A DNA stretch of 64,000 nucleotides from a virus (IMGVR_UViG_3300020048_000088:17314-81313); one strand, 5' to 3'; positions 13,413-42,429 are shown, numbered from the stretch's first letter. Numbers and translations are program-made. The notes: a model not told the origin generated them from the letters alone.

Positions 13413-13432
13413 GGGAGCCCCGAAGGGCTCCC
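13413..13432 (-). terminator. GC-rich stem-loop with UUCG tetraloop (terminator or mRNA-stabilising hairpin)
   Basis: Minus strand GGGAGCCC-TTCG-GGGCTCCC in the intergenic gap; no clear U-tract. Confidence 0.5.
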
Positions 13433-13438
13433 GTTACA

Positions 13439-19324: not shown

Positions 19325-19379
19325 AGGGGCTCCGTATGCGGACAGTTGCCGCGGGGTTTTACTTCGGGAGCCTCAGGGG

Positions 19380-20065: not shown

Positions 20066-21415
20066 TCAGGCAATTGCCGCCTCAAATTGTGCCTTAACAG
20101 CGTCAAGGCTGTCAGCCTCGTATTTGTCGTCGCGCAGCTCGATGAAGCGGGGGTGGAACAGGCTGTGCTTGGGGTTGGACTCCGAGGGGTGGGCGATGGC
20201 GTTGGCCCTCACACACATGACCTTGCCCAGCACCGAGTCACGATTCTCGTGCAGGTACTGCTCCATCTCCCGCTTGAACCCCGACACGTCGACCTCGAGC
20301 ATGCCGTCGATGGACTGGACCTTGACGGAGCCGAACGTCGCCTCAGTGCGCTTGCCGGGCTCACCGGGGTTGAACCCGATGATCTCCAGATCAAGGTCGA
20401 CCTCCAGCTTTAGTTTCACACAGTCTTTCGATGTGTTGTCAGCCCACTCTCCAAGAGGGTTCTTCAGGATCACACCCTCCAAACCCCGCGCCAGGATGCC
20501 ACGGTAAATCCGCATGGCTTCGTCTTTACTGTGCACGACCTGGCCCTCGATCAGCATGATGCTGGACTTGCCAGCCTCCACCACCTGATCCTTGAGCAGG
20601 GCGTAGCGCAGGGTGTAGGGCGTCTTGACCTTGCCCTTGGGCACTGCGAACTCCAGCGGAATCTGGTCCCAGCAGTCGAACCGAATCTCTGCACCGGGAG
20701 GCAAATCCCCTCCATTCTGGAGTGAATTTAGCATGCCGTTGCCCACGGTACGCGGCTGGAGCTCGCCATTGATCCAGATGGTGAGCTCGCCGTGGGTCTC
20801 GGTGTTGGGCTTGAAGCACCACATGGCGTCTTCGGTGAGCTTGTGCAGGGCAGGGATGCTGGGGTAGGTGTTGCCTTGGCGGGTGGTGATCAGCACTCCC
20901 CCGTGCACTTCCCGGGACACCCGGGCAAAGCTTCCATCCGCCTTGAGCTGGCAGTAGACGCCGTTGTCCCAGTTCCATTTGTCGATGTTGCTGTCCTTGG
21001 GGAGAGAGCAGCGCTGGTACGGAAAATCTGGGATGGTGCCGGGAAATGCGGTGTTGACCGTGTTGGCGCCGATGCCGGCACGCAGGTCTTTCAGGATGAT
21101 GCGGCGCAGCACCTCGCCGTCGTCGGGGTGCAGGTCGTGGAGCGAGAAGCCAACGGCCTCCAGTGCGGCGTTGCCCGTGAGGTCCCGGTTGGCAAGGTTT
21201 TCCAACAGGTCGTACTCCATCTGATCCATCTCATCCAACCCTGTCTTTGTTGGGGCCTCCAGCTTGGCGATGTAGTAGCTGATGGTGGGGTCGAGCGCAG
21301 CCTTGGCCAGTGCCAAGTCAAGTTTGTCGAACGTCTGGACGATTGCCAGCTTGTCCTTCTTGCCGGGGGTTGCTGCCAGTGCGTTGAGCTTGGCCAGAAA
21401 TGTTTTTGCTGTCAT
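20066..21415 (-). CDS. lig: ATP-dependent DNA ligase
   Basis: QLKADG (motif I Lys), FDCW, EGVILK, KLK, C-terminal OB fold; ATG 21415 behind TTTGGAG SD. Confidence 0.93.
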   Translation of the reverse strand: MTAKTFLAKLNALAATPGKKDKLAIVQTFDKLDLALAKAALDPTISYYIAKLEAPTKTGLDEMDQMEYDLLENLANRDLTGNAALEAVGFSLHDLHPDDGEVLRRIILKDLRAGIGANTVNTAFPGTIPDFPYQRCSLPKDSNIDKWNWDNGVYCQLKADGSFARVSREVHGGVLITTRQGNTYPSIPALHKLTEDAMWCFKPNTETHGELTIWINGELQPRTVGNGMLNSLQNGGDLPPGAEIRFDCWDQIPLEFAVPKGKVKTPYTLRYALLKDQVVEAGKSSIMLIEGQVVHSKDEAMRIYRGILARGLEGVILKNPLGEWADNTSKDCVKLKLEVDLDLEIIGFNPGEPGKRTEATFGSVKVQSIDGMLEVDVSGFKREMEQYLHENRDSVLGKVMCVRANAIAHPSESNPKHSLFHPRFIELRDDKYEADSLDAVKAQFEAAIA

Positions 21416-21447
21416 AGTGAACTCCAAATGTGTGCCAATGGCACGGG

Positions 21448-21777
21448 TTAATGCATCCCACCCTCGACGTGAAGTCGAAGGTGTTCCATAAAGTCATCAA
21501 AGTCAAGGTCCTCGGATGGCCTCCATTTGGTGGAGACCATGTCAAGGTACCTCGACGCGTCGTCGCACAGCGACTCAGCGCTTTTGAGGGCGCTGTGCTG
21601 GGGCACAAGGAACTTGCGCCACATTACGGGCTCCTTGCCCGTCCACTGCTCGTAAGCAAACAACATCAGGCTTTCGTCCGGGAGCGTCATGTAACCCAGG
21701 ACGATCTTCAGGGCGAACGCCTGTTGAGTGAACCCCGTCACCATGCTGGTCGGCGGGGCGCTGGTTTCGTCGGTCAC
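21448..21777 (-). CDS. Hypothetical protein
   Basis: 109 aa, GTG start. Confidence 0.55.
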   Translation of the reverse strand: MTDETSAPPTSMVTGFTQQAFALKIVLGYMTLPDESLMLFAYEQWTGKEPVMWRKFLVPQHSALKSAESLCDDASRYLDMVSTKWRPSEDLDFDDFMEHLRLHVEGGMH

Positions 21778-22097
21778 ATAGCACCTCCTGTAATGGTTCC
21801 TGACTGTGTCAAATTCATGCGAATCGCTCTCACCCCCTTGGGTGAGATGGCCTGCCCTCTAAATTGCGCACCCACTCCGAGGAGTTTGAGGCTCGCGTTG
21901 TCGAGTTGGCTGGCGACTTCCTGGTCGAGTCCATAAACGGAGACGATGTAGCCCTCGGCCCAGCCCTTGCCATGGCGTGTGACACGCATGACAAGAGCGT
22001 CGGCCTTGATGCCCACCTCAGCAGTATTCCCGAGCTCCTTGAGCTTCCAGGTTGTACCGTTCCAACTGGCTCTGACTTCTAGGTATTCGTTCTTCAC
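21774..22097 (-). CDS. Hypothetical protein
   Basis: 107 aa, GTG start, overlaps next start. Confidence 0.55.
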   Translation of the reverse strand: MKNEYLEVRASWNGTTWKLKELGNTAEVGIKADALVMRVTRHGKGWAEGYIVSVYGLDQEVASQLDNASLKLLGVGAQFRGQAISPKGVRAIRMNLTQSGTITGGAM

Positions 22098-22158
22098 GAT
22101 TTTGATTCCTGTTGCTTGGGGGTGGGCTAGTTCCCCGGTTGGCCCTAACGGTGACGGA

Positions 22159-22866
22159 TCAGGCTTTCGCCATGAAGAAAACTGCCTGTGCCTTTGCCTT
22201 GCCTGAGCCGTGGGCGGGGAAGCCGATGATGAATCTCCGGTCAGGGTTGGCGCAGATGGCGCAGATGGCGCAGGTTGTGTTACCTACAGTTGCCGGGCAC
22301 ACCATGACGGTGTTGCCAGCCGGCGTTTTCACTGTGGTGGTCTGGTCGATCGGCAAGATGACCACCACAGGCGCAATGCCGAGGGCGAAGAACGCGTCTG
22401 CCTCGTCCAGCGTTTCAGCGCTGAGGTTGACAGTGAATCCTTGCTCGTTGGCTTTTTGGAGAACCTCGGCGTTCTCCGGGATGAACGGGTCGTAATGGCA
22501 GAACGTGAACCCGTGTCGGCCTCGGTTGGCCTGCACAATCTTGTTCACAGACGCTGCGTCAAGGTAGACACGGTCACCTGGCAGGTCGCCGGCTTGGTCG
22601 TGGCGCCAGAGCTGGAACTTGGGCAGCGCCGCGATTTGCTCGCAGAACTCCTCCAGCGAGACACCCCTATCCCCCTCAGAGATCAGCCTCCAATGGAGCG
22701 CCAGGGGACCTTGCTCTCCGTAGCAGCCAGAGTCGTACAGGCTGCACCTTGTAGGGCACGTCGACCTTGACGTTGTGGACGCGGGAATGCCTCCGAGTTT
22801 TTTGTTGGCAGACACCCGCGTCAAGTGGTACCGGTGCTCCGGAATTGATCGCTTTAGCTTAAACAT
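22159..22866 (-). CDS. Cys-motif protein resembling gp88/DUF7227-like families
   Basis: TCPTRC..SGCY three-Cys motif, WRHDQAGDL, FTFCHY, GFTVNLSAE, C-terminal CPA..C..C..C; ATG 22866 with TTTTGGAG SD. Confidence 0.55.
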   Translation of the reverse strand: MFKLKRSIPEHRYHLTRVSANKKLGGIPASTTSRSTCPTRCSLYDSGCYGEQGPLALHWRLISEGDRGVSLEEFCEQIAALPKFQLWRHDQAGDLPGDRVYLDAASVNKIVQANRGRHGFTFCHYDPFIPENAEVLQKANEQGFTVNLSAETLDEADAFFALGIAPVVVILPIDQTTTVKTPAGNTVMVCPATVGNTTCAICAICANPDRRFIIGFPAHGSGKAKAQAVFFMAKA

Positions 22867-22904
22867 TCTTACTCCAAAATTTGCCCAAAACAGGGCGGGG
22901 TGGT

Positions 22905-23177
22905 TTAACGCTTGGCGAAGCGTGGTGCGAAGCAGTCCTTCAGCTGCCCGGTTTCGCGGTTCATGTGGGTACGGATGCCTGCCACGTCGTGGCAGAAGTC
23001 GAGCTCGGGCGCCATCAGCAGCGCCTGCAGATCGAGCTTGGCGCCGTTTCTGTGGCAGGCGGTGACGTCCATCTCGGTCTCGAGCAGGTTGCGCCGCTGG
23101 TTGGTGATGCTGGCCCATCGCAGCACGATCTGGTTGATGAGGCGGGCGTCGCCGTTGGGGACTTCAAACTTAACCAT
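22905..23177 (-). CDS. DUF6874-like protein
   Basis: MDVTACH.NG..LDLQALL..DFCHDVAGI..HMNRETG.L..CF.PRFA pattern. Confidence 0.6.
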   Translation of the reverse strand: MVKFEVPNGDARLINQIVLRWASITNQRRNLLETEMDVTACHRNGAKLDLQALLMAPELDFCHDVAGIRTHMNRETGQLKDCFAPRFAKR

Positions 23178-24995
23178 TGGAGGCCTCCGGCGGACGTTTA
23201 AACAACTCGTAGCCGGCGCTGTACAGGGCCGCAGCGACACACTTGGGGCCGGTGTCCCGCCAGTAGACATCCTCCAGGCTCTCAAGGGCCTCCTCAAGGG
23301 TTTCAAGGGTTTCCTGCTTCTCCGCTTCGTGTATCGTGGCGCACACGGTTCCAGCTTTCGTCTCCCACCGGGTTACTTCACGCATTGGCGACCTCCGTGA
23401 ACTTGGTCAGGCGCTCCACACGCTGGGCGTGGTACCCAAGCATGGCTTGGGAGTACTCCACCGCTGAGTGGGCCTCAAGCAGTGCCCGGCGGGCGTCCTC
23501 CAATTCGAGCTTGGCCAACGCGTCGGTGTCCTTCGGCCATGCGATTTCAGTCAGCTTTTTGAACATGGTGTTCTCCTTTGATCTTGTCGATGACGTCCAG
23601 GTAGTCATACCCGAACGATGAATGGCCGGTAGCCTTGCACAGGGCGCGCAAGGCGTCGGCAACTGGCTTTTGGGTGTAGTGGTTTTTGGATCGGTACGCC
23701 TGACCTTTGGTCACGTACACGACCATGCCGACAAGGGCATCGATCAGTTCTTGGGTCACTTGAGGTCTTTCACGAGGTCAAGTATTTGGAGATGTTTGGC
23801 ACCCTGGTCCGTCAGCGCCCTGTAACCGCTTCTCGCCCAGTCGCCTATGTGTTGGGCTCTCATACTTACGGGGCCCAGAAGCTCTTTACCCTCCGCGTCC
23901 AGGGCTTTCACACGATTCGCCAGGTGGTCAAAGTACAGCATCGCATTCAGCATTTCGTGCGCCCTGTCTTCGGCGCCCTCGGCGTACTGCTGCAGCTCCT
24001 TCAGTTTCTCTGCGCGCTGGGCTGCTTTTTCGATGATGTCTTCGTAGTTAATGTTCATGCTGAACTCCAAGTTGTGTCTCAAATCGAGACGGTTAAGGAA
24101 GGTGCCCGGTTGCGTGATTAACTGCCGGGCGCAGCCTAACGAGGGAGACTCTCAAATCTCCGACAGTGTTGGGGGCGATCACGCACAGCCAACGACCGCC
24201 AATTGGTCAACTCCGGAATTTGGGGAACGCCTGGTAATGGTCGAAGAACTTTTCGTGGCTGCCGAGGTTTCCATCGGTGGCGCGGCCCGCCGCCTTGTTG
24301 ATCAGCAGCAGGCGCACACCCAGTGGTGCGTGTGCGTCGATCGGCAACCAGAACACATCCTGCGCCACGGCTACGGTTCCAGCCACGTTGACCTTGATGT
24401 TTGGGGCGTCGCGCTTCTCAGCCACCTCGATGGCGTCCTGCAGCACTTTGATTGCCTCCCTCCACTCATACTCACAGCCACAGCAGTCGGGTGCTACTGG
24501 GCCAAGTAGCTGGATAGCTTGTTTCATTGCTTCAATCATGATTTGCTCCTTTGATTCCGTGTGCGGCTTCGATAATGTGAACCCATTGCTTGACAGTTTC
24601 AAATACCCACGGCTCTTTGCACATGGATTTGATCTGCTCGTCTGTCAGAGGCTGCTGCGCTGGTGCTGTTGGTGCTGCATAAAGCGGCTCCCATTCACCG
24701 CCACTACGTTGCTTTGGGCGGTGGGGTTGTAGCAACGGGTACACCGCTCTTGGGTGAGTCCAAGCCCCAGGCTCCACCTTCCCAGCCTGCTCGATTGCTT
24801 GGCGCAGGGCTGTGATAGCCTTTTCGATCTGGGTAACTTTGTTTGACCTAAACCAGCCACGCACATATTTGCAGACTGCTTGCCTATCGAACATTGACGG
24901 TTCGTGCATCAGTGCATTTCCAATCATGGTTCCGTTGAGTCTTGTCGAGTCTTCAAGCGCCTCAAGCGCCTGTTTCATCACATTAATGCTCATTT

Positions 24996-25217
24996 TTAAA
25001 ACCCGGCGTAAGTGCCGGTTCCGTTAAGTGCGTGCCAGACCACTTGGCGCGACACGTTGAATTTGTAGGCGATGGTCTTGCACAGCGCCCCCTCGACCCG
25101 CATCGTGCGGGCCTCCAGCACTTGGTCGATGTTGAGTGCGGGTTTGTTGTGGCTGCGGCGCGCGCCCCCGTTGCCGGCCCACAGCCCTGGCGTTCTGAGG
25201 TAGACGCCACTTGGCAT
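24996..25217 (-). CDS. Small helix-turn-helix protein
   Basis: MPSGVY...LCKTIAYKFNVSRQVVWHALNG; TGATG overlap with upstream ORF. Confidence 0.6.
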   Translation of the reverse strand: MPSGVYLRTPGLWAGNGGARRSHNKPALNIDQVLEARTMRVEGALCKTIAYKFNVSRQVVWHALNGTGTYAGF

Positions 25218-25810
25218 CACAGCTCCGACGCAATCCAGAGTGCACAGGACGCAAGCGTCATCAGCGCAAGCACCCGCCCGCCCCAGATGCAGAGGTCGTC
25301 GATGTAGTTCTGTCGAATATCGCGGCGCGAGGCGCCTCGGGTGTAGTCTTCGTTTCGTTTCATGCTCGCTCCAAAATTTCAGTTTCAATTCTTTGCCGAT
25401 CGCCATCGGTCATCTTTGCCTCCAGCCACGGCGCAGGGCGGCCGCGCCGGTCGCAGACGTCGAACTCGATTTCGCCGCCACGCTCGGGCTCCCAGTTGTC
25501 AGGATGGCCCCTGAGGTGGGCACGGGTGTAGGGTTCGATGTGCACAACATCGATCTGGCAGGGGATTCCTGCAATCCTTGATTCCATCGTCACCCTCCCA
25601 TCAGTTGGTTGTACGGGTTGCACTCGTCAAGCTCCGCCTGGTACAGCATGATTTCCGTGTGCACAAAGTTCCAGTAGCCAAGATTTGTTTGGTAGTCCCT
25701 CACCGCGCGGCGCCAGTCAGCCAGTCGAACCACCGGGTGCTGCTCGGCCTCGTCGTACTTCTTCGCAAGCTCTCCCGCGGTGAGGCCGAAATCTTTGATC
25801 AGGTGGTGGC

Positions 25811-26329
25811 TCAAAGTAAATCCCCCACCTTTGCGCTGCTCAACTGCCTGGCGTTCATGCGGAACCTGCAGCCGTCATCCAGACGTGTGACGCTCCAACC
25901 CTTGCGGGGAGCCCATGGGGATTCCAGTCGATACTGGTGGCCGCCGTATTCGACGACCAGCCCTGGGGCCAAGGTTTTCTTCGGGAGCTTGGCGGCGTGA
26001 TACTTCCGCACATCTTCGCGCCACTTGGCGGCAGACTCGTTGATCGGGTCTGACGCGGCGTCGATCAGACTCAGGGGGCAGTCGTAGTAGTACGGCCCCA
26101 TGTCCTCACTCATCCCCTTGTAGCCCCAGCCGCCGTTGCGGTCCTTGGCGATCAGATCAAGTGTGATGAACGTGCGGTTTGCGGACTCCTGCCGCACAAG
26201 CTGCCAGATGTGGTTTCCGACTGCTCGGCCCTTGATCGGCGTGAAGTCTGGGCCGAAGTGTTTTGCAGACATGATCTCTGCGACGTGCGCCTTGCGGCCC
26301 ACGTCAGCGTAAGCGAATGACCATCCCAT
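25811..26329 (-). CDS. DUF6927-like protein
   Basis: WGYKGMSEDMGPYYYDCP..SAAKWRE pattern. Confidence 0.6.
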   Translation of the reverse strand: MGWSFAYADVGRKAHVAEIMSAKHFGPDFTPIKGRAVGNHIWQLVRQESANRTFITLDLIAKDRNGGWGYKGMSEDMGPYYYDCPLSLIDAASDPINESAAKWREDVRKYHAAKLPKKTLAPGLVVEYGGHQYRLESPWAPRKGWSVTRLDDGCRFRMNARQLSSAKVGDLL

Positions 26330-26530
26330 GGTGAACTCCAAATGTGACCCAAAATTGGGTCGGGTTAAAAAATCAGTCGTTAGGGTCGAAACTGCTGAGG
26401 AGCTTGTCCGTATAGGCCTCTCGAACCCGTGCTGCGCGCTTCGCCTTCAGCGCATTCTGGCGCTCAAGCATGAGCATCCTGACCATGCCTTCCAGGAGTT
26501 TGACTCGCGCCTCCAGATCGTTGGGCTCCA

Positions 26531-26899: not shown

Positions 26900-26911
26900 T
26901 TCAATCCTTGG

Positions 26912-29900: not shown

Positions 29901-31740
29901 TGTAGCGGTAGTTGACGCTCGTGACGTTCTCCGCATAGAGAATGTCGACGATCTCCTGCTCGTTGCCGGCGCCCAGACTGCGGCTGGGGTTGCCGACGTA
30001 GAACGTCACTTTGTTGACACAGGCGAATCGCACGAGGGCGGAGATGTGATCGGGGGAACAGATGAATGCTGACATGGTGAACTCCAAAGGTGGGGCAAAG
30101 CGCCCCGGGTTTCAGGTGCTGGCTAATTCTTCGTCGTAGTTGGGGTTGCCGTCTTCGTCTTCCGTCAGAATCGTTACGCTGATAGGGCGTTTCGAGTCGA
30201 CGGTTTCAGCGGCAGACCAGTCGGTGTTCAAGTCCAACTCCATCCACTCATCCTCCCCCTTAAACGCGAAGTGCAGGGTGTCCCACTTGATGAACCACTC
30301 GGCTATGTCCGCCCAGACTCTCCCCTCAGGCAGGGTGACACGGGATAGGGTGCCACAGTAATAGGTGGCCTCGATAAACACAGAGACTTGTTTTGACATG
30401 GTTTACTCCTTAAATTTGAAACGGGCAGGGGTCGTGGCGTGGGCCGCCGGGCTGATTCAAGGCACAGCGGTCCATGTAGGCGGCCGACAGGTCGTCGTAG
30501 TCCACACCGTAGACGTCGCACACTGCGTCAGCCGCATTGGGGTACTCCTGGCCCCGCTCGATGCGGTTGATGAGGTTGTCCAGCGCCCGTTCAAGGACTT
30601 GTTCTCTGTGCGTCATGCCATCACCTCTTCGCGTTTGGCACGGGTCTCAAGGTACTCGTGCACCTTGGTCAGTCGCGCCATCTCGGGACAGTTGTCGAAC
30701 AGGATTTCGTCAAATAAGCCGTTGCCGCGGTCACTCTCCATCAGCTCAACCTCTCGGTACTGGTCGAACTCGCCGGCGGTTTCCAGATGGGCGTGGGCTT
30801 CGATCAGGGTGGCGATCTGGTTGTGGTCCCAGGAGTGGAAGTCACCCCACTCGTCGAGGTCGTTGGAGTAGAAGCTGCAGAACCCGTCGCGGGAGGTGTG
30901 GTTGGCACGCACCATGAGGCGCAGGGCAGGGGTGTCGACAGCGTCGAACACCTTCTGCAGCGACTCGGGGGTGATCCAGCAGAAGCATCTATCTCCGGTG
31001 AAGTTGTATTCACGAGGCGAGACCAGCTCATCGAACGTCAACTCGAGGGCGAAGTTGTCGGCGAAGTTCTCGCAGTACGCCTTGGCGTAAGCCGTGTGAA
31101 CAGCGTGCCAATTCATCGAACTCCACGCTCGCATGACGAGGTCGCCGTTGACTTCCCACCCGGTGTCGCGGTCGGAGAAGATGCTGTCGAGGGCGCTGTC
31201 GAGCGCGCCGTCGTGAAAGCTGTTGTAGAACCCGCTGAAGGGGATCACGCATAAGTGTTTCATTTTGGACTCCAAAGTTTGGGCAAAATCGCCCGGGGTT
31301 TGCCAGGGGTTACTGGACTTCTCTCAACTCAAGCTCCGTGTTTCCATGCTTGGTGGCGTTGGTCTCCCACACTTCAAGGTTGAAGTACTTGAGCAGGATG
31401 CGGATGGTTTCCTCGATCTGAGCTTTTGTGGCATCGTTGCTCCCCGGCTGGAATAGCTCCGTCTCTACGACAGGCTCGTCGTTTTGGTTTACGAAGGTCA
31501 TAGCTGCGGGCCTTCCACGTCCTGAGCATGCTGAGCAAGCGCTCGCATGAAGCCCGAGAACTCCCTCGCGCTCAGGAACTGGAACGGCTCCCACTCGATC
31601 AGGTTTTGATCTCGCATGTAGCCCACCGGGCTGTCAGTCGCCGTGATCGCATCAAAGTGCTTCACAGCTTCCTCTTCAGTCACTTCCGCGTTGATCATCT
31701 GGCGGAAGGCGAACACCTTCCATTTGTCAAGCAGCTTCAT
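26912..31740 (-). other. Cluster of small early hypothetical ORFs
   Basis: ORFs 26912-27109, 27106-27384, 27381-27599, 27596-28279, 28276-28524, 28521-28961, 28958-29152, 29149-29343, 29340-29501, 29498-29683, 29683-30075, 30112-30399, 30410-30616, 31310-31501, 31498-31740; mostly ATGA/GTGA/TGATG coupled. Confidence 0.6.
30613..31263 (-). CDS. Acidic conserved-type phage protein (IPFSGFY..SPREYNF motif)
   Basis: 216 aa, Asp/Glu rich; motif recalled from phage early regions; function unknown. Confidence 0.55.
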   Translation of the reverse strand: MKHLCVIPFSGFYNSFHDGALDSALDSIFSDRDTGWEVNGDLVMRAWSSMNWHAVHTAYAKAYCENFADNFALELTFDELVSPREYNFTGDRCFCWITPESLQKVFDAVDTPALRLMVRANHTSRDGFCSFYSNDLDEWGDFHSWDHNQIATLIEAHAHLETAGEFDQYREVELMESDRGNGLFDEILFDNCPEMARLTKVHEYLETRAKREEVMA

Positions 31741-32011: not shown

Positions 32012-35000
32012 GATTTCTCCTTAGTAGCTTGCGTCAGTCGGTATCACGCCAAACGCTGCCTTGGCCAAGTCGTAGATGTCGTTCAGACTCACCCGGACCG
32101 CGGGCTTGTCGGTGTTGTCGAAGGCCACCGCCCACCCGCTGATGTAGCGCAGCTTCTCGGCGCCGGCCTCCATCAGCACGCAGACCTCGCCGTCGGCGAG
32201 GTGCTCACTGATGTCGGATATGAGGTCGATGTCGATGCTCTCGTCGGTAGCCTCATCGTAGTAATACGCTGGGAAGCACCCTTCATCGGGGTCGTCGCTG
32301 TAGATCATTTGCATATCCCCTGCGGGGCTGCTCACCAGACCGGGTACGCTTTCGACCCAGGCGTCGAACGCCGCAATGTCCTTCACCTTGAAATAATTGC
32401 TGCGCGCGGTTCCGTTGAAATTTGCCATGTTGAACTCCTTGGTTATTTGTCCGTTTGCGACTCAATGAACGACTGGGCGTCGGCGGCGTGCCGAAAATCG
32501 GCAAGCCAGATTTGCACCAGCTCGCGCTTTTTGGCGTAGCAGCAGTAGACGCTGCTGACTTCCATATTGGTCTTCTGTTCGGTCTTGATTACGAGTTTCA
32601 TGTGATCTCCAGTTGGATGTCTTTGGTGTGTTCGGCAAGTTCGTAGTCGAACACGCTCTTGGCCTTGAGGGCAGCCATGAACTCATTTGAGGTGAGCTGT
32701 CGGCGGTCCGTTTCGGCATCGCGCAGGATGTTGTAGCAGCGCTGGTATTCGAGCAGTGTCTTGAGTTTCATATCGTTTCTCCTTCGTAGTCGTACTTGGC
32801 CATGGGTTCGCCGTCTTGGAGGATGACGACAGGCTCACCAGCGCAGCGGCCGTACCTGGCCTTGCTTTGGCGTTTGTACTCACCGTACTGGCGCAGCGCC
32901 TCGTGGTAGTCGTCGCCGGTGTAGGTGGTGCCGATGTTGCCGACAATCACTTGGTATTTCATGTTCGTACGCACTTGAGTGCGCCTCTTTTGGTGAGTGA
33001 AAGAACGTAGTCGGGGTACTCGTGGATAAACTCCTCCGACTTGGCGATGTGCAGGCTGGCCTCGGAGTTCTGGCCATAGCGCTCAAGGTCCATGGCCGAC
33101 TCAAAGAACGACGCCTTGGCGGTTTTCAGGCTTGGGTGCGGCTCGAACTCCGGGTACAGCGTCCCGGCGTAGCAGAGATAGCATTTCATTGCAGTCTCTC
33201 CCATCTACGTTGGGCGTCAGCACAGATCATGACCAGCGCCTCGCTCACCGGTGCATAGGTATCCATGACGCTGATGCCGTGGTACTGAACCGTGCGCTTG
33301 ATTCCAAGCAGGTCGCACAGGTTCATCAGGTAGAACGGCAGCGTGGCGACTGTCAACTTGTACCCGTCAGTGGCGAGGCTCATGCGCTTGTTGGCCCACT
33401 CCAGACACTTGACCAGATGCTTGAGCTGGTCGATTCCGGCACTGTGAACGTCGTGCGCCTTGAGCTCGATCTGAACCTGACCGTCTTTGAAGACTGCCAG
33501 GCGCATACCGAGGTCCTGCCAGCACTGGGTGTGGTACTGGGGCATGTACCCCTCAGCTGCCTGCTGGGCGCGGAAACTGACCCGGGTGCTGTCCACAGAA
33601 CAGACGCTCGGGCCATAGTCGGCGCTGCCGATGCGCTCGCAGGTCGAAGACTTGCCAGGCCACGTCGGGATGAAGACTTCGACGCCTTTCATACTGTCAC
33701 CCCCTGCGCATACCAAGGGGTTGTGGCTTCTGGTTTGTGCTCGGCCTGATCCGCAAGGTTCCACAGGTGTTCGGCCAGCGCCTTGGCCTGTTCGGGGCGC
33801 ATGGTGTGGGTGAAGTTCAGCCCACCAGCGTAGGCGCTAAGGCTGATCAGGGCTTTGCCATCAAGTGCGTTGTTGGGCAGGACGCTGAGCTCGTAGCCGG
33901 GGTCTGTCCAGTCGAGCCAATTGGAAAATTTCATGGGAACTCCTAAGGGTGGCGCAAATCGCGCCGTTGTTGTGGGGCATGATTGCCCCGGGGTTACTCA
34001 GCCAGGTGGCTGAGGTCTTTCAGGTGGCCCCTGCACAAGAGCAGGACGTGGTAGTCCTGCGGGTCCACCCAGTCGTCGTCGCCGGGGTCGAGGCTCCAGC
34101 CGTCCGAAGTCTTGGCTTCGTCTCTTGCAAGGCTCACAGCATGTTTTAGGCAGCAGGACTCCACATAGGCCAGGTAAGTGTCCTTGCCGAACTCGCTGGC
34201 GATGTAATCGGGCCGCAAAAGCAGTACGGTGTAGTTCATGACAGGTCCGTCTCAAGGCACCGCAGCTGCAGGATTGCTCTCTCAAGCATTTCCTTGAACT
34301 CCCCCGCGGACTCGGCGTCGTGGGCTTCGTCCATCAGGAACCTGAACAGTCCGTCGCCGCAGGTTTTGAGCTCCGCCTTGGTGTTGACGTACAGGAGTTC
34401 GCCACCACAGTAGTGGGCACGGACGAGGATTTGGTTGGGGTTGAGTTTCATGTTGTCATCCCCACCAGCGATTCAAGGTCCAGCGCCGCGGTGAATGGGA
34501 CAAGCCCACTCTCTTGGCCCGACATGTCAAGGATGACGCCCTCGTTGGTCACAATCACATGGAGGTCGAGAATCTCATCGTCATCCTCCCCAGCCTCACG
34601 GAAAATGAACCGGATTGGGTTGTCAAGGTCGATCCACGTCATGCCGTCGTCGATTGAGAATTGGTTGAGTTTCATGATCGGACTCCGTCCAAAATGGTCA
34701 GGTTGTTGGTGAAGCCTTCCTCGCTGGTGTGCTTCAGGCTGAACAGGACGATGAAGGTCGCGTCGTCGTAGATGCGCAGGGTCGACCCGCCGATCCGGTA
34801 CTCCGGCTCGAACACGGCCAGCGTCGCCGGGTAATCCTCAGCGTCCTCGTCCTCGGTGAACAGCTGGTAGCCGGCTGCGTAGTGGATGTTTCCGCTGTGC
34901 ACGCCCATCTCCTTGAGCCGGGTTGCGATTGCCGGAATGCGCTCCAGCCACTCGTCGCCAAGGTAGACCTCGACGTGCGTCGGGTTCTCGGCCCACTCGA

Positions 35001-35275
35001 CGTTGCATTGATACTCAGACTTGAATGTGATCACGATATGAACTCCCCTGTGGGTACCAGGCTCACCATGTGGCGCAGTCGCGCTGGCAAGCCGAATTTG
35101 CGCGCAGCCATGAAGCGCGCTTCATGGTCGGTTCTGGCCCACACGTCAACCGACGCGCCAGCCCATGTTCCGAAATACTTTCTCATTCTGAACTCCAAAA
35201 CCTGTGCACAAAAGCATGCATCAGGAAAGCGAAACGCTTCGGATTGGGCGGCATGCCACCCAATGTGAAACGAAC

Positions 35276-36190: not shown

Positions 36191-36462
36191 TTTATTTCTC
36201 CTTCGTCTTCGTCGCAAAAGTCGCACTGGGATTTCCAAAAGGGAACCCGAATCTGCTTGCACTCCGGGCACAGGTGGTCGAAGCGTCGCATGAATTTCTT
36301 AAGCCAGTTCATTCGACCTCCAACTCGGTCGTGAACAGTCGCCCTTCGGCGTAGGCATCAAGCAGCATGATTGCCAACTGGCAGTTATTCTCAAAGTAAT
36401 CCCTGTCGCTCTCCATGTAGCCTGGGTAGCGTCCTTCTTCGTAAGTGCGACGGGGCTTGTGT

Positions 36463-36846
36463 TCAGGAAAGCTCATCAGGCACCTCCACTGCGTCACCCA
36501 ACTTACTTGCCACATAGCAGCGCATGGCTGCTACCAATGGGGTTGAGCCCTTGTACCGTGGTGCTGGCATCGCTCTATCGTCCCACGCCTCCCACACGCC
36601 CCACCCGCAGAAATCCATGCCGACGTGCTCACGCTCAATGATCGGGCCACCTTGTGCCCAATCGGTTGAAGGTGAAAATCGCTTACCAACGTAATGAGCA
36701 ACAGCACAACCAACTCTTTTCTCTGGGCATGGCACCAGATTCCTTTCAACCACCGCTCCGTTTCTGATACGGTGGTTAATGCCCTGTATTTCAGCCACAG
36801 CCCAGTCAAGGGTCGCGCCCGTCAGTTCGCTTGTTTTGATCTTCAT
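36463..36846 (-). CDS. NinX/DUF2591-family protein
   Basis: KTSELTG..LDWAVA..FSPSTDWAQGGPIIERE..TPLVAAMRCYVASKLG..VEVP. Confidence 0.8.
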   Translation of the reverse strand: MKIKTSELTGATLDWAVAEIQGINHRIRNGAVVERNLVPCPEKRVGCAVAHYVGKRFSPSTDWAQGGPIIEREHVGMDFCGWGVWEAWDDRAMPAPRYKGSTPLVAAMRCYVASKLGDAVEVPDELS

Positions 36847-37752
36847 TCGACCTCCGCATAGATTTCGCCCGGGAATCTCCCCCACGGGCGGGGTGCCTTG
36901 TGAATGGCGGCGCCGTAAGTCATGGCACGCACCGTCGCGATTTGGCGCCCCTCTGGCGCCCAGAACAGTTTCCAGGTTTTCATGTCAGTCTCCTCTGATT
37001 CCGGTAAGCACTTCGGCGGCAGCACGCTGCCACATCATCGTGTGGGTGCCCTTGGTGCCGTCGTTGGCCAGCAGCACAAGGTCGTACAGCTTTGGGGCTG
37101 CCTTGATCAGTCTGGCGTTGGCATCAGCGTTGGCCCCGATGACCCTTGCAAGGTCTCGCCCGGAGCTGCCAGCGTAAATCTCATACTCCGGGGCGTAGTC
37201 GGGCGTGCCAAGTCTGCTGACGTACCACGGGCCTTGGGTGTGATTGCTCATTTCAGAATCCTCCTGTGAGTTTGACGCTCAGGCCGTCATGGTTGGCGGA
37301 AAATGTGAGACCCTTGCGCACGAGGGACTCAATCACGTCCATGAATCGATCGTGATTGGGGCAGACAATTACCATCCCGCCCATTGGGACGGGGCCACTC
37401 CCAATGGGCGGGCTGGGGCTGTCGGTGCTGCAGCGGTTGAGGGGTTTCATACCAGCACCTCCACTGGCGCCTTGCGCAGCATCGCCGGCAACACCCCCAT
37501 GTAGGCCTTGCCAAACCCGCGGTCTTCAAAGAAGACTTGGCGCTCATCACCCACATCCCGAAACACCTTCAGCACCAGATGCGGACCCACACCAAACTTG
37601 ATGCAGGTGTCCTTGGTGAGGTTGACCCGTTCCCGATCGATCTCGAGCGTGGTGACCAACTCGTGATCCCTCACCCGCAGGGTGATGGTGGGGTTGTAGC
37701 TGGTGGGGCAGTTTGCGTACTCCACGTAGAAAGAGTTTTCCATGTTGTCTCC

Positions 37753-37980
37753 TTAAGTCCAAGCCAAACCCATGGCGACCAACTGCTCGCCGCCGTAAAC
37801 CTTGAGCTCGCCGCAGTTGGGGCACTTGTACTTCTGGGCATCCGGCTCCACGCCGCCGGCGATTTCGCCGCAGGCAAGGCAGAAGCCATCGTCACCCATT
37901 TCCATCGCCAGCTCGAAGCTCGGCTTGTACTGAAGCTTGCCGCTTCCTGCGCGGTACTCGCGCACCTGATCTTTAATCAT
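37753..37980 (-). CDS. Zinc-ribbon protein
   Basis: GFCLACG..VEPDA..YKCPNCG. Confidence 0.65.
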   Translation of the reverse strand: MIKDQVREYRAGSGKLQYKPSFELAMEMGDDGFCLACGEIAGGVEPDAQKYKCPNCGELKVYGGEQLVAMGLAWT

Positions 37981-38070
37981 GTTTGGACTCCAAAACCGAT
38001 ATAGAAAAGCCTATATCGGAAAGCTTTCGCTTCGTGATATGGGGCACGCCCCACATCCGGAAACGGCTTA
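37978..38070 (-). repeat. Structured intergenic element, copy A
   Basis: About 95 nt; three hairpins plus SD; near-identical 3' half to copy B. Confidence 0.8.
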
Positions 38071-38585
38071 CAGTGGCGGGAACCCGCTGCGGTACTCGGA
38101 CTCATCCACCCCGTACCGGTACCCCACCCACCGGTAAGCCCCGTTGGGCTGCCTCCCACACTTGTAGAAAAACCCGATTGGGTCTTCCACCAGCGACAGG
38201 GCTGCGTGCCTTGCGAACTCCGGGTTGGCATAGGCAAGGTCGATCACCTCCTTGGCTGTCAGGCGAACGCTGTCGGGATGCGCCACGAGCTGGGCTTCCC
38301 AAAGGTCGACCCGAGCGCGCTCAATTTGCTCCTCCGCGAGGGCGAGGTTGACGATGTTGGGGTTCATTTCGCCCCCTCCAGCAAGTCGCGCAGGCACAAG
38401 TTCACCCCTGACCAGATTTCGTGACCCTCCGGCGTGCGGAACCACTCGAACATGCCGATGATCAGATGGTCTTCGGGCTTGCGCTCCAGACGCGCCAACT
38501 CACAGATGTCAGCACGCTGCGCTGCGATCACAGCGATTTCCCGGGGCACGCCCAGCTCGACAAGGCGCTCGATGTATTTGAGTTT

Positions 38586-38675
38586 CATTTGGACTCCAAA
38601 ACCGATATAGAAAATCCTATATCGGGCAGCTTTCGCTTCGGATTACCCAGCACGCTGGGCAATGTGAAACGGAAT
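38586..38675 (-). repeat. Structured intergenic element, copy B
   Basis: Shares CGAAGCGAAAGCT..CCGATATAGG(C/A)TTTTCTATATCGGTTTTGGAGTCCAAA with copy A. Confidence 0.8.
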
Positions 38676-39194
38676 CAGGCGAGCAGGGCGGCCACCACGA
38701 GAATCTCCACGAGCAGCATCAGGGCGCCGGCAGCCCAGAACTTGACACGCGCGGCAGCGCTCCCCACCCTGCGGGAGGCAAGCGGGACGTTGAGTCCCGA
38801 CGTCATGTTGGGCGTCCAAGGTGTGTCAAGCTTGCGCATAGCGAAGGGCACATCGTGCCACATCCAGGTTTCGTTGTAACGGTCTTGTTTGCCCCATCCC
38901 CAATGATCTGTTGGCCACATATTGAACTCCAGTTAGGCACGGATGCCGTGTTTGTCGAACCAGTTGTGAACGTGGCGGGAATACTCGCCACGCTCCGAGA
39001 GCAGGGTGCCGATGGAACCCTTGAGGAGGCTCTCGTAGTCCTCCTCGGGTGCGTCCCGGTCAGCGATCGTCTGGGTGGCGTTGTTGTCGCCACTCATGAT
39101 CAGGGACTCAATCGCATTGCGATGCGAGAAGCCGCGGATTGCCTTGGCGGACGCCAGCAGCATGACGTATTTGGAGTCGTTGATCATTTCAGCC

Positions 39195-39635
39195 TCACTC
39201 CGCCCAGGTGCGAATCGTGTCGACGATGGTGCGAGAGGTATCGCAGTCCAGCCGGTACTGGTCGGCGAAGAACCGGTGAATCTGAACGACTGAGATGCTG
39301 AACTCATCGGAGTCACGAGCCAGTCGGAACTCAGCAGCCGTGACCTGCAGCTCTACCTCCCGCTGGGGGAAGCTCACGATCACGCAGCGGTCGTCGTCTT
39401 CTGACACCGGGCAGCGAACACCCGTGAGAATCGTGTCAACCACACGCATGGCCTCGAACAGGCCGACGCCGTGCTGCTCACGGATGAACTTGATACTGGA
39501 GACGCGCTGTCCGTCAGCCTTGCTGCATCGGCTGATCAAGGTGTGCTCGGCATTTGTGATTTGCAGGGTACCCACGGTGCTCGGGTACGACACAACGTAG
39601 GTGCTGGCGTCAGAGTTGGGGGAAACTGAGGGCAT
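39195..39635 (-). CDS. Protein with tandem ribosomal protein bL12 (L7/L12) C-terminal-like modules
   Basis: RVSSIKFIREQHGVGLFEAMRVVD resembles bL12 CTD; a degenerate second repeat follows. Confidence 0.5.
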   Translation of the reverse strand: MPSVSPNSDASTYVVSYPSTVGTLQITNAEHTLISRCSKADGQRVSSIKFIREQHGVGLFEAMRVVDTILTGVRCPVSEDDDRCVIVSFPQREVELQVTAAEFRLARDSDEFSISVVQIHRFFADQYRLDCDTSRTIVDTIRTWAE

Positions 39636-39730
39636 GATTGGACTCCAAAATGTGTGCAAAACCGCACAATCAAGCGTCCTAAAAGCAGGGCGCTTGAGTG
39701 TGGGCCCCCCGCAGGGTGCCACTTTGAGTT

Positions 39731-40033
39731 TCAACTCCCCTTTGGGATTCGGCGCACGAACACACCGACGTACTCGCACCCATGCTGGGCGGTGTACAGC
39801 CACTCGTCCATCTGGCTCTCCGTCAAGTCGGTGTCGACGTGGATTTGAGAATAGCTCTCATCTTCGTGGTATGGGCCACCGTCCCGCACAGCTTGTGTGG
39901 TGAACTGCCAGCGCAATTTGTGGCGCAGCTTGGCAGCGTCTTTCGTTTTCACGTCGATGCCCAGGTGGTGAATTTGTGGAGCTGTGCAAGGCTCCGAAGT
40001 CGGCACGGGGTTGGGGTGGGTACCAGATTTCAT
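39731..40033 (-). CDS. Hypothetical protein
   Basis: ATG 40033 behind hairpin + TTTTGGAG leader. Confidence 0.6.
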   Translation of the reverse strand: MKSGTHPNPVPTSEPCTAPQIHHLGIDVKTKDAAKLRHKLRWQFTTQAVRDGGPYHEDESYSQIHVDTDLTESQMDEWLYTAQHGCEYVGVFVRRIPKGS

Positions 40034-40158
40034 ATCGAACTCCAAAATTAGCCTCAAAACAGAGGCGGCCTCAGTGTATGTGCGCTGGCACACGGTTTAA
40101 GTAATCCCCCCCCCATTTGGGGGGGGCTAGGGGTCTCTATTTTTGTTTATGCTTCGCG

Positions 40159-40176
40159 GGTTGACCTAGGTCAACC
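40159..40176. repeat. Perfect 18-bp palindrome GGTTGACCTAGGTCAACC plus a partial repeat at 40182-40193
   Basis: Read directly from sequence. Confidence 0.85.
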
Positions 40177-40189
40177 TGAAAGGGTTGAC

Positions 40190-40939
40190 CTAGACCAGGG
40201 TTTTCAGGTCGAAATCCCGCGCAATTCGCTCGTACCGCTTGAATCGACGGGTCTCATACTGCCTCGAATTCAGCGCCGACTTGGTTTCTTTAACCAGCCG
40301 CTGGTACTCAACGACTGTTTCGGGGTCATCTGGGCCACTCACGGCAAGGGCCGCCCGGGTATCTAAGCGCAGTTGAACCACGCGCCGCCCAGCTATCTCG
40401 ACAATGTCCTGCTGCCTCTCCACCAGCGTCCACGGCTCTTCCTCAAGCAGGCGCTTTTGCTCCCTCAGGTAAGGGTCCCGGTTCGCCTTTCGGTCTGCGA
40501 TCTCAGCTTTCCTTTGAGCCCACAGGTAAGCGCGCTCCTGCCTCGCTGCAGCGTCATCGAGACGTTTGGCTCTGGTAGCTACCCGCTGGGCACGGGCGGC
40601 CCGCCTTGCCTCGATTTGAGCCAGGCGTGAGGCTCTGGCCTCGCGCTTTGCCTCACGCAGGGCTTCGAGTTCGACTTTCGCTTGGGCTCGGGATTCGCGT
40701 TTGGCTTCGAGTTCGACTTTCGCTTTGGCTCGGGATTCGCGTTTGGCTTTGGCTTGGGCTTGTGCCTGGGCTCTGGCCAATCGATCAGATCGTCTTGCAG
40801 CCCTCGCCACGACAAGGCTCAGTTGAGCGTTGGCCTTGGCGTTGGTGGGGTCGACTGTGAGGACTGCCGCCAGTCGGGCAAGCCTTTTCAGTTCGGTTGC
40901 CGGTGGCGGTTTTGGGGTCTTGAGGGGGCGCCCCATCAT
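40190..40939 (-). CDS. Basic Arg/Ala-rich coiled-coil protein with a 14-aa tandem duplication
   Basis: 249 aa; 42-bp unit twice at 40661-40744. Confidence 0.6.
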   Translation of the reverse strand: MMGRPLKTPKPPPATELKRLARLAAVLTVDPTNAKANAQLSLVVARAARRSDRLARAQAQAQAKAKRESRAKAKVELEAKRESRAQAKVELEALREAKREARASRLAQIEARRAARAQRVATRAKRLDDAAARQERAYLWAQRKAEIADRKANRDPYLREQKRLLEEEPWTLVERQQDIVEIAGRRVVQLRLDTRAALAVSGPDDPETVVEYQRLVKETKSALNSRQYETRRFKRYERIARDFDLKTLV

Positions 40940-41289
40940 TCATTGCGCCGGCGTTGGGCATCCCGGTCGACTTCGCGATGGCGCTCAGCCTTGGCCTCAG
41001 TCGCCGCGATCTGGGCATTGAGGGCAAGCTCTGCACCTGCTAGGGACGAGCGGCATCGAACCTGCTTCACAATCCGGCGCCCATGCTGCTCGAACGCGGT
41101 TCTGGCCTCGGTCAGCTTGGCAACAAGCAGTCCGTACTCAGGCTCGGGGCAAACCCTGATTCGGGACTGTGCCTCAAGCATTGCTTTGTACAGGGCGTCG
41201 TGATTGGCCTCGAAATCGGGTTCGGCGGCTATCTGCAAGGCCCGGATTTCGCGGGCCTCATCGCTCTGAGGTAGTCGTTGTGCGCTCAT
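40936..41289 (-). CDS. Hypothetical helical protein
   Basis: 117 aa, ATGA overlap with the downstream ORF. Confidence 0.55.
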   Translation of the reverse strand: MSAQRLPQSDEAREIRALQIAAEPDFEANHDALYKAMLEAQSRIRVCPEPEYGLLVAKLTEARTAFEQHGRRIVKQVRCRSSLAGAELALNAQIAATEAKAERHREVDRDAQRRRNE

Positions 41290-41776
41290 ATTGAGTCTTC
41301 TCCAATGAAAATGCCTAAGTCGAACCCCTCAAGCGCTCTTGCAAGCGCAGGTTGGCAGACGCTTCACTCAGCGCAGGGGTTCGGCTTAGGCACAGTGAAA
41401 GTCCCTGCCAAGGGACGGAAATCCAAAGATAGCACTATTCCGAATTGGATTCGGAATCGCTGAGGCAAGTGAGTCTCAAGGGTAGGCCCAAAAATGCAAA
41501 TGCACCTAAGTAAGAAAAGGATAGTTATATTTAAATAATTAACTATTCTTACCTTATTGGGTTTCTCTAGCATCACTTTGGGGGAGGGGGGGTGTAGAGG
41601 TGCTTCTGCACTGATTTGAAGAAATCCTTGAAATCCTCAGGATTCCTACTGAAACTCAAAGTGAATTCCAAAATCACCTCTACAGGAGGGGTGGTATAAA
41701 TCGCACTAGAGAACCTTGATTTGCCCCTAAACCTCAAAAACGCCCTAAAAAGTGCCCTTTTCGCCCAAAAGTGCAA

Positions 41777-42025
41777 TCACGCCTTGAAGACTTGCGCAAA
41801 ATTGCGTTTTGCACGGTACTCGGCCCGTCCAAGGCTTGGTTCGGGAGCTGGTTCGACTGTGAAGTCAGACAGGCATTCGTACGTGCTGAGGTCGATCACG
41901 CGGCCTGACTTGCGACGGGCTGCCCGGTCGGCGGTGTACAGGTTCTTGGTGGGCGCGCCAGATCGGGTGAATGTGCGGTTGCCATAGTCGTCAGCGACTG
42001 GCTCCATGACTGCGTAGAGACTCAT
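41777..42025 (-). CDS. Hypothetical protein
   Basis: ATG 42025 behind hairpin + TTTGGAG leader. Confidence 0.6.
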   Translation of the reverse strand: MSLYAVMEPVADDYGNRTFTRSGAPTKNLYTADRAARRKSGRVIDLSTYECLSDFTVEPAPEPSLGRAEYRAKRNFAQVFKA

Positions 42026-42093
42026 CTCGTACTCCAAATTCACTGCGAAATTGCAGTCCGAATCCCACTTGAGAATGGGATTCAGACTCGAAT

Positions 42094-42282
42094 TTAGCGG
42101 TCGAACTCGTCTGCCAAGGTGGCGGCGGCGTAGCCCAGAGCGGTCAGAAGTCCCACACCGATGGCGCTGAGGGCGGGGTGCAAACCCTGACCCGAGCCGT
42201 AGACGTAGTCAATGCCGAGCCAGGCCATTGGAAACATGCCCAAGAGGGCAACGAGGGCAGTTGCCCACATAAGTATTTTCAT
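42094..42282 (-). CDS. Small two-TM membrane protein
   Basis: 62 aa; two hydrophobic helices; leader cassette upstream. Confidence 0.65.
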   Translation of the reverse strand: MKILMWATALVALLGMFPMAWLGIDYVYGSGQGLHPALSAIGVGLLTALGYAAATLADEFDR

Positions 42283-42429
42283 TTTGAACTCCGAATTGAT
42301 CCCAGATTGGGATCGGGTTTGTGCTTAAAATTTAAGCAAAAATTTCAAATTAGGGCCGTTTTTGGGAAACTTTTCAGTATTATGTTAAGTTAAATATCGA
42401 ATCAGCCCTGGCCCCAACAAGGTCGGCGC

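Follow-up and report, generated by a model that had tools for sequence, protein, structure and literature searches.

A hairpin-bearing leader cassette, repeated 15 times, punctuates the early region of an uncultivated long-tailed phage whose 81-kb genome is known only from metagenomes. The cassette is a real control element confined to one clade of uncultivated, G+C-rich long-tailed phages, and it resembles known phage 'start cassettes'; its role is putative. In the 64,000-nucleotide stretch of the genome analyzed here (the window), all 15 copies are on the minus strand, from 21.4 to 42.3 kb; each lies directly 5' of an ATG, where a further block of small, translationally coupled genes begins (Table 1). 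The order of elements is a stop codon, an A/C-rich run ending in AACC(C), a G+C hairpin of 4–9 bp, an unpaired A(C/A)N-UUU linker, the Shine–Dalgarno (SD) region GGAGU(U/C)CA, and the ATG. Genes within a block are coupled by ATGA overlaps, with the cassettes occupying the gaps between ATGA-coupled runs. This anatomy, along with the strand and region specificity, the conservation with compensatory stem changes and the block-boundary position, is established. A preliminary description had proposed about 15 minus-strand copies; on reading, a hairpin, spacer, GGAGT and ATG were present in 15 of 15, and all of the stems that it quoted were correct.

Table 1 Cassette copies in the window, with their stems and matches to covariance models R1 and R2.
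Feature	Position	Strand	Stem	Model match	Remarks
Cassette before ATP-dependent DNA ligase gene	21413..21450	-	GTGCC/GGCAC	R2 E=1.2e-9	
Cassette before DUF7227 gene	22864..22902	-	GCCC/GGGC	R2 E=5.6e-7	Conserved in L035, L051 and L056
Cassette	24056..24096	-	GTCTC/GAGAC	R2 E=2e-8	Octamer variant CTTGGAGT
Cassette	26327..26367	-	GACCCA/TGGGTC	R2 E=1.7e-9	
Cassette	30073..30112	-	GGGGC/GCCCC	R2 E=1.3e-12 (top match)	Begins 5 nt past upstream TGA
Cassette	31261..31300	-	GGGC/GCCC	R2 E=1.1e-10	Orthologue in L056 precedes homologous 216-aa gene
Cassette	33932..33971	-	GGCGC/GCGCC	R2 E=5.9e-10	Variant TTAGGAGT; second hairpin immediately upstream
Cassette	35184..35226	-	TGCA(T)/(G)TGCA	R1 E=0.0025	Third hairpin in three-hairpin leader
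Cassette	37978..38025	-	9 bp, A/T-rich, then UUUU directly	11 bits	Excluded from covariance model; belongs to three-hairpin leader
Near-duplicate of 37978 copy	38586..38631	-			27-nt exact run in common with 37978
Weakest copy	38918..38956	-	CACGG/CCGTG	R1 E=0.004; missed by R2	No T-run (CTGGAGT)
Cassette	39633..39674	-	TGTGC/GCACA	R2 E=5e-4	Bigger hairpin upstream
Cassette	40031..40072	-	GCCTC/GAGGC	R2 E=0.099	
Cassette	42023..42063	-	ACTGC/GCAGT	R1 E=0.007	14-bp hairpin upstream
First cassette of the array	42280..42320	-	GATCCCA/TGGGATC	R2 E=6.7e-6	Variant TTCGGAGT

The sequence that follows the hairpin is strongly over-represented. The window has 12 occurrences of the octamer TTTGGAGT where 1.6 would be expected, and none of 100 shuffles reaches that count; 11 of the 12 occurrences are on the minus strand, and all 11 lie 5–8 nt 5' of an ATG. 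The consensus in this clade is (A/C)(A/C)N-TTTGGAGT(T/C)CA, with the octamer departing by one or two bases in four of the 15 copies (24056, 33932, 38918 and 42280). Geometry was compiled over 46 copies from the window and its relatives: stems measure 4–9 bp (mode 5), loops 3–8 nt, the spacer between stem and T-run 0–6 nt (mode 3) and the distance from GGAG to the start 5–8 nt, while 5–10 nt separate the hairpin end from GGAG. The stem flanks hardly vary, being C on the 5' side and A on the 3' side in 37/46 copies. Hairpins of -5 kcal/mol or better, ending 9–24 nt before the start, accompany 12/15 cassette genes versus 31/202 other candidate starts (Fisher p = 3e-7), which is not the similar frequency before non-cassette genes that the preliminary description had named as counting against the element. 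Its further statement that late genes use AAGGAG leaders instead did not hold, as AAGGAG precedes 12 ATGs in the early region and only two in the late block.

The same cassette grammar is present in eight related metagenomic phages, and L051–L057 share the block and cassette architecture of the window. As had been suggested, covariation was measured and covariance models were run against this genome and related ones. Stem cells are paired in 82.9% of cases versus 60.8% in shuffles (0/500 shuffles reach the observed value; slid controls stay at or below 52%), the covariation score is 0.537 versus 0.179, and all four Watson–Crick pair types are found at two stem positions. Model R2, which was built from the relatives only, recovers nine of the 15 cassettes of the window (E<=5e-4) with no other match in 81 kb, and the covariance model returned no additional significant copy on either strand of the genome. 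Matches of the cassette model in the relatives all fall on the coding strand (36/36); distant A+T-rich phages with the same ligase gave no cassette-model match. At the ligase site, orthologues in six relatives (L001, L002, L036, L051, L054 and L056) keep the pairing and the conserved flanks, with a stem that differs from that of the window in five of the six; L054 retains the window stem. These observations indicate that selection maintains the structure, in its sense (mRNA) orientation, as a mark of early-block boundaries across the clade. A G-U strand test of the active strand is by itself ambiguous: inner G..U combinations favor the sense strand (25 vs 2), while the outer conserved C..A would be a wobble pair if antisense (37/46). 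The modules of the cassette are separable, as L055 retains the hairpin and a ..CTTTG linker with GGAG lost, and L035 retains the T-run and SD with the hairpin cleanly lost; the latter implies that single copies are dispensable.

What might such an element do? The complete genome gave no family match for an RNA polymerase or sigma factor, T7-type polymerase and the sigma-70 family included, although for PF00940 the negative is weak, as the control genomes were also without match; the giant 2467-aa protein is a tape measure and not a virion polymerase. As the phages of this clade apparently have no RNA polymerase of their own, the host enzyme most likely transcribes the ~21-kb array of small early genes as long polycistronic messages. 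We tentatively favor a model (probability of roughly 0.4) in which the cassette is an RNA-level mark of punctuation that ends one unit of decay and translation and starts the next. It would act post-transcriptionally. The hairpin would close the upstream block as a barrier against 3'-to-5' decay, and may also be a weak pause; the single-stranded A/U linker would keep the ribosome site open, offer a likely entry point for a host RNase E-type endonuclease and possibly present a U-rich binding site to ribosomal protein S1. Every block would so gain a strong de novo initiation site and a decay unit of its own, and, as a by-product, the repeated core of 11–36 nt could provide microhomology for gain and loss of gene blocks.

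Of the functions put forward in the preliminary description, shared RNA processing or stabilization is the most economical, as judged from sequence. Hairpins begin no more than 12 nt past the upstream stop in 22/46 copies, as would be expected if the element terminates translated blocks. In 33/46 copies, versus 6/56 control leaders, the linker contains RN|WUU, the core motif of RNase E sites (PMC5222698); the match is one of sequence only and, being due mostly to the conserved UUU, does not count as independent evidence. Against the punctuation model, a hairpin of 5 bp would hinder exonucleases only modestly, and in-silico folding found that the hairpin made no difference to the ribosome site, whose accessibility is 0.472 in the native leader, 0.477 after deletion of the hairpin and 0.470 after its disruption. 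Two classes of intercistronic hairpin invite comparison: the REP elements of malE-malF, which are stabilizer hairpins built on ~35-nt palindromes with conserved sequence, and the T7 R-sites, irregular duplexes of ~20 bp between early genes that are cut by RNase III. In both, the upstream segment keeps a hairpin as its 3' terminus, and this hairpin sets the stability of the individual segment. The cassettes likewise place a hairpin between the cistrons of a polycistronic message; they differ in fusing a stem of ~5 bp to a fixed ribosome-binding site. The T7 early RNase III analogy of the preliminary description, and with it membership of that class, is rejected, since stems of 4–9 bp (mode 5) are far too short against a ~20-bp duplex. 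An Rfam scan of 20–46 kb returned no curated family, its lone sub-threshold chance match being PhotoRC-I (21.5 bits; gathering score, 45).

Loops are alike within a genome (GAAYT in all seven L053 copies; GNUUU in the window, L051 and L056), a likeness that a pure barrier would not need and that may point to a recognizing factor. Such a factor, be it an RNA or a protein of phage or host, might read the hairpin loop and the UUUGGAGU region and impose a global, early-to-middle-like switch of translation or decay on all early blocks together, which we consider unlikely. Such an operator would account for loops that are lineage-specific over variable stems, for the near-invariant stem flanks and for the conservation of the UUU that precedes GGAG and the U(U/C)CA that follows, which goes beyond what 16S pairing needs; the start-associated sequences of Cluster K mycobacteriophages have prompted the same argument (PMC3203893). 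Yet copying between cassettes could also produce the within-genome likeness, loops of 3 to 8 nt coexist in one genome, and no candidate factor emerged: the genome search gave no match to the RegA or RegB families, and among the early proteins the ten largest showed no above-threshold Pfam domain and matched only PHROGs of unknown function. For T4 RegB cleavage, the second analogy of the preliminary description, no homologue of the enzyme was found (PF10715 in the complete genome), a weak negative given that the control genomes are equally without match; the early SD sites do contain GGAG.

Rather improbable is a reading of the hairpins as weak intrinsic terminators or pauses, with stepwise read-through attenuation setting an expression gradient or delay along the array. 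UUU does follow the G+C hairpin within 2–4 nt, copies 37978 and 38586 carry UUUU straight after a 9-bp stem, and one copy passes a simple terminator scan. A G at -10/-11 with a terminal U followed by G also resembles what we take to be the consensus elemental pause. The canonical intrinsic terminator is nevertheless rejected, as there is no U-tract against the stem: the first three post-stem bases lack U in 31/46 copies, at least five U in eight occur in 1/46 only, and the base after the stem is the conserved A. Canonical terminators of the same genome (L058 14025-14050 and 11617-11630) carry five U immediately 3' of the stem, and the scan found no excess in the region (22 versus 19.4 expected). 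The stem-loop of the promoter-early stem-loop (PeSL) cassettes of T4-type phages (Arbiol 2010, PMC2839356; Comeau 2014, PMC4122927) has been interpreted as a terminator (PMC4122927), which speaks for this reading.

It is very unlikely that the cassette is mainly a DNA-level recombination joint, PeSL-like, whose repeated core serves block exchange, insertion and deletion with expression effects secondary. The proposed check of breakpoints gave one clean example of gene-content change at cassettes and a weak enrichment, which are suggestive of a role as a joint. The clean cassette-bounded indel lies before the ligase gene, where an additional unit, a cassette with a 67-aa gene, is present in L056, and a single cassette in the window; the hairpin of the window cassette matches the first L056 copy, the signature of exchange in the shared TTTGGAGTTCA core. 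Further, the 26327 hairpin follows the DUF6876 gene in both the window and L056 and is then succeeded by different downstream genes, and L052 has three copies identical across ~35 nt. Transitions in gene content fall at 5/6 cassette versus 10/27 other boundaries, a marginal enrichment (one-sided p = 0.053) that selection against disruption of coupled blocks predicts equally; many indels lie inside coupled blocks, distant from cassettes. Stretches of exact identity between copies in the window are short (median 8 nt, at most 16 nt except for one duplicated pair), and recombination alone leaves the pairing-preserving stem changes and the strict stop-to-SD placement unexplained.

Repeated motifs upstream of early genes are commonly promoters, and the ~11 nt from loop centre to T-run resembles what we take to be N4 hairpin promoter geometry, but it is highly improbable that the hairpin, or AACC plus linker, is read by a phage polymerase that escaped recognition, or by the host RNA polymerase aided by a phage factor, to start transcription just 5' of the SD: besides the polymerase and sigma-70 negatives above, no sigma-70-type hexamer pair was found at the cassettes (scans gave 2 hits versus 5.9 expected, none of them there), the unconserved stem sequence provides no fixed -10 element, and a start downstream of any -10-like position would remove the SD. 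An N4-type hairpin promoter is rejected on the absence of an RNA_pol family match and the tape-measure identity of the sole giant protein.

Among known phage start cassettes, PeSLs have several features in common with the present element, but the analogy drawn in the preliminary description is not supported. Both are repeated composites of stem-loop, SD and ATG before small, variable early ORFs, with a lineage-specific consensus. PeSLs are associated with insertions, deletions and replacements between relatives, an association that is suggestive for the cassettes. A PeSL, however, contains a sigma-70-type promoter (-35/-10) between stem-loop and SD (PMC4122927), whereas here the gap from hairpin to SD is ~10 nt; with no room for a promoter and none found, PeSL membership is rejected. 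PeSLs also share long homology, while window copies mostly share 8–16 nt. The start-associated sequences (SAS) of Cluster K mycobacteriophages and their extended counterparts (ESAS) (Pope et al. 2011, PMC3203893) occur in 11–19 copies per genome, in a single orientation and in the non-structural half only, before unrelated genes across subclusters, with many copies preceded by an inverted repeat (PMC3203893). The cassettes share with them the single orientation and non-structural location (here minus strand and early region, with none elsewhere in the genome) and an asymmetric SD-core motif placed 3–8 nt before a start that is mostly ATG (here GGAG at 5–8 nt, with ATG in 15/15). They differ in host phylum and phage lineage, and the 13-bp SAS consensus GGGATAGGAGCCC is unrelated to the TTTGGAGT(T/C)CA-type consensus found here. 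The ESAS have 17-bp conserved arms with no RNA-type compensation and were read as DNA-binding sites (PMC3203893), whereas the cassette arms are 4–9 bp, free in sequence and covarying.

The early-region cassette, which runs from a stop codon through an A/C-rich stretch ending in AACC(C), a hairpin, an A(C/A)N-UUU linker and GGAGU(U/C)CA to an ATG, was confirmed with the layout claimed for it in the preliminary description at 15 of 15 minus-strand sites between 21.4 and 42.3 kb, the octamer being variant in four. The window contains the sequence TTTGGAGT 12 times, where 1.6 occurrences are expected; 11 of the 12 lie on the minus strand, every one immediately 5′ of an ATG. On the gene map, gaps of 32–150 nt, carrying one cassette each, divide runs of genes with ATGA-type overlaps; each cassette therefore heads a block. 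Among the 46 hairpins pooled from the window and its relatives, 22 start at most 12 nt past the upstream stop codon. A stable hairpin lies just 5′ of the ribosome site at 12/15 cassette genes, as against 31/202 other candidate starts, which bears out an excess at the former, and a covariance model of all copies recovers these 15 sites and no others across the genome. The further claim that late genes use AAGGAG leaders as their alternative does not hold. Three leaders of the array are longer and carry three hairpins; the final one is the cassette hairpin in each, and two of the three leaders are near-duplicates.

The window covers bases 17314–81313 of an IMG/VR record, a complete virus of 81,313 bases and ~60% G+C, whose ends share a 55-base overlap. 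Its minus-strand block extends from ~42.96 kb to the window start, headed by an HNH endonuclease gene and continuing as far as 21.4 kb with ~70 small ORFan genes; beyond these lie the replication genes (ATP-dependent ligase, SNF2 helicase, primase, family A polymerase, SbcCD-like nuclease and thymidylate synthase). The plus-strand block from ~43.6 kb encodes terminase, portal, protease, major head protein, tail genes and a 2467-aa tape measure, the predicted length of which implies an unusually long tail. At the nucleotide level the early region matched none of the isolate phages searched, and no isolate is close; the nearest neighbors at the protein level are some Vibrio phages, with terminase and polymerase 25–29% identical. 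Two early ORFan proteins have no relatives in IMG/VR.

Features of the phage genome by position (window coordinates unless stated otherwise)
Feature	Position	Strand	Description
Leader of RNase T-like exonuclease gene	13397-13438	minus	8-bp G+C hairpin with TTCG loop, between stop codon and Shine-Dalgarno (SD) site
Leader of SNF2 helicase gene	19325-19379	minus	AAACC(C), GCGG/CCGC hairpin, then ACGGAG; no T-run
Long conserved leader	24059-24206	minus	~150 nt, non-coding, upstream of the 24056 cassette; conserved in related contigs L051 (3755-3910) and L056 (7448-7601)
Three-hairpin leader	35184-35275	minus	starts CGTTTC after stop codon
Three-hairpin leader	37978-38067	minus	starts CGTTTC after stop codon
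Three-hairpin leader	38586-38674	minus	starts CGTTTC after stop codon
Homopolymer hairpin	40106-40126	minus	C8, AAAT, G9, within the gap that precedes the 40031 cassette; adjoins three GTCAACC repeats
Gene-free stretch	41287-41776	minus (as read)	490 nt; repeated GGGC-N-TTTTT-like units at its start
Near-palindrome	41519-41550		A+T-rich, ~32 nt, mid-way in the gene-free stretch
HNH homing-type endonuclease gene	42430-42957	minus	heads the early array, immediately upstream of the first cassette
Tape measure gene	58110-64000	plus	runs on at the genome start; 2467 aa after removal of the 55-base end overlap
Small canonical terminator	11617-11647 of L058, the whole genome (bases before the window)	plus	5-bp stem and five T, straight into a GGGGAG ribosome site; precedes a 141-codon late-region ORF

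Pairing is what is kept at the cassette stems, whether by copying or by stepwise compensation. In a 43-sequence alignment, 82.9% of the cells of a 6-pair helix are paired, compared with 60.8% in shuffled versions (none of 500 attains the native value) and at most 52% in slid controls; all four Watson-Crick pair types appear at two stem positions. Six relatives keep a hairpin at the orthologous ligase position; five of them have a stem unlike the window's that nevertheless pairs, and the sixth (L054) has the stem of the window. Part of this variation may reflect copying between cassettes, and not stepwise compensation. A model built from relatives only retrieves nine window copies at E ≤ 5e-4 and a tenth at 0.1, with nothing else on either strand, and its matches in relatives are all on the coding strand (36/36). 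No model match was obtained in A+T-rich phages with a distant ligase, and no Rfam family matches the cassette. An exact 16-mer scan of viral contigs was uninformative, its 22 matches being scattered at seemingly chance level by a rough estimate made with no computed expectation.

The cassette before the ligase gene is kept in contigs with ligases 69–78% identical. Longer contigs (L051–L057), obtained via the neighboring DUF7227 protein at 60–75% identity, possess coupled blocks parted by 30–60 nt gaps that carry the same cassette grammar as the window, in lineage-specific flavors (TTTAGGAGTTCAC in L052, GAAYT loops in L053). The stem flanks are near-constant, with C on the 5′ and A on the 3′ side in 37/46 copies, and T-T-T follows two to four bases further on. 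The ligase leader of another relative, L035, has lost the hairpin and retains T-run and SD, and L055 has lost GGAG and retains hairpin and linker; the hairpin and SD halves can thus be separated.

The cassette most likely works at the level of the mRNA, or in concert with it; its orientation is strictly sense, it lies tightly between stop codon and ribosome site, and its pairing is conserved and its sequence not. The asymmetry of G-U versus A-C pairs, as an indicator of the active strand, was ambiguous. The most economical model, to which we assign a probability of roughly 40%, would be post-transcriptional punctuation: the 3′ hairpin would close the upstream block, the open A/U-rich linker would offer a candidate RNase E-type site, and the uniformly strong SD and ATG would permit de novo initiation of the next block. 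The RNase E core motif RN|WUU (PMC5222698) fits the linker sequence in 33/46 copies. The idea that the hairpin structurally insulates the ribosome site is not supported, since predicted accessibility is unchanged by it: partition-function folding of the 46 copies gave SD-to-start unpaired probabilities of 0.472 native, 0.477 with the hairpin deleted and 0.470 with it broken. Pairing that would sequester the SD, with the 5′ AACCC or between UUUGG and CCAAA, is not general, appearing in just 4–6 copies in minimum-free-energy folds.

The main rival to mRNA punctuation, in itself unlikely, is that a trans-acting factor reads loop and linker; it holds this place because the conservation of loops and flanks exceeds what a simple barrier would need. 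We likewise consider it doubtful that the hairpin and UUUGGAGU linker form the recognition site of a candidate phage-encoded RNA-binding or RNA-cutting factor timing or shutting off all early blocks at once. Such a factor would match T4 RegB or RegA in function while being unrelated to either in sequence, and the lineage-specific loop 'codes' would co-evolve with it. The suggested RegB analogy was left where it stood by searches, run without a positive control, that detected no RegB or RegA homologue. The parallel with T7-type RNase III sites is ruled out because the stems are only 4–9 bp long.

Attenuation at the cassettes is improbable. They do not resemble canonical terminators, as their U-tract is set apart from the stem and 31/46 copies lack any U in the three bases 3′ of it; genuine terminators in the same genome have five U directly after the stem. 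The small terminator of the late region has the look of a terminator-type equivalent to the early cassette.

A mainly recombinational role is decidedly improbable. Gene-content transitions fall at 5/6 cassette boundaries versus 10/27 others (p = 0.053), so that the proposed association of breakpoints with cassettes is suggestive only, and window copies share short stretches of exact homology. Compared with L056, the window is missing one unit ahead of the ligase, composed of a cassette and a 67-aa gene, and the hairpin of its single ligase cassette is the first of the L056 hairpins; exchange inside the shared core would fit this difference. In both the window and L056, the DUF6876 gene is followed by the same cassette, and the genes beyond it differ.

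A promoter is very improbable. Sigma-70, ECF or sigma-54-like promoters were rejected, there being no fixed −10 element and a resemblance by eye in single copies only. A T7-type RNA polymerase had no match in the genome, a weak negative because the PF00940 control genomes were likewise matchless; no sigma-70 domain was found in the genome. An N4-like hairpin promoter fails because the virion polymerase it requires was not found, the giant protein being the tape measure. The integron attC analogy was rejected by inspection on size, AAC/GTT core orientation and absence of an integrase.

Repeated 'start cassettes' of phage early regions are known from a few model groups, and their function is still unsettled. 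The nearest described systems are the promoter-early stem-loop cassettes (PeSLs) of T4-like phages and the start-associated sequences (SAS, or ESAS when extended) of Cluster K mycobacteriophages (PMC3203893), with which the cassette shares its logic and not its sequence. In PeSLs, a sigma-70 promoter lies between stem-loop and SD (PMC4122927); unlike them, the cassette has ~10 nt there and no promoter-like hexamers, and so fails one of their defining features. Unlike those of ESAS, which are conserved in sequence, its arms covary, and one defining feature fails here too. What the cassette adds is a structured part with clear pairing-preserving change, separable from the ribosome-binding site, and spanning a whole clade of uncultivated phages in which no own polymerase was found. 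At ~40 nt, the cassette is small and well defined enough for direct testing in a two-cistron reporter; it bears on how phages organize and time long accessory-gene arrays, and in metagenomic phages of this kind the motif is a useful marker of where genes start and where blocks meet.

The genome has other non-coding features as well. The gene-free stretch could be an origin or regulatory region. The long conserved leader contains several hairpins, one with an altered yet still paired stem in L056; its sole Rfam match is a sub-threshold PhotoRC-I (E = 0.15). The SNF2 helicase leader is related to the cassette and near-identical base for base in L051, L054, L055 and L056, and a hairpin comparable to that of the exonuclease leader occupies the same place in relatives.
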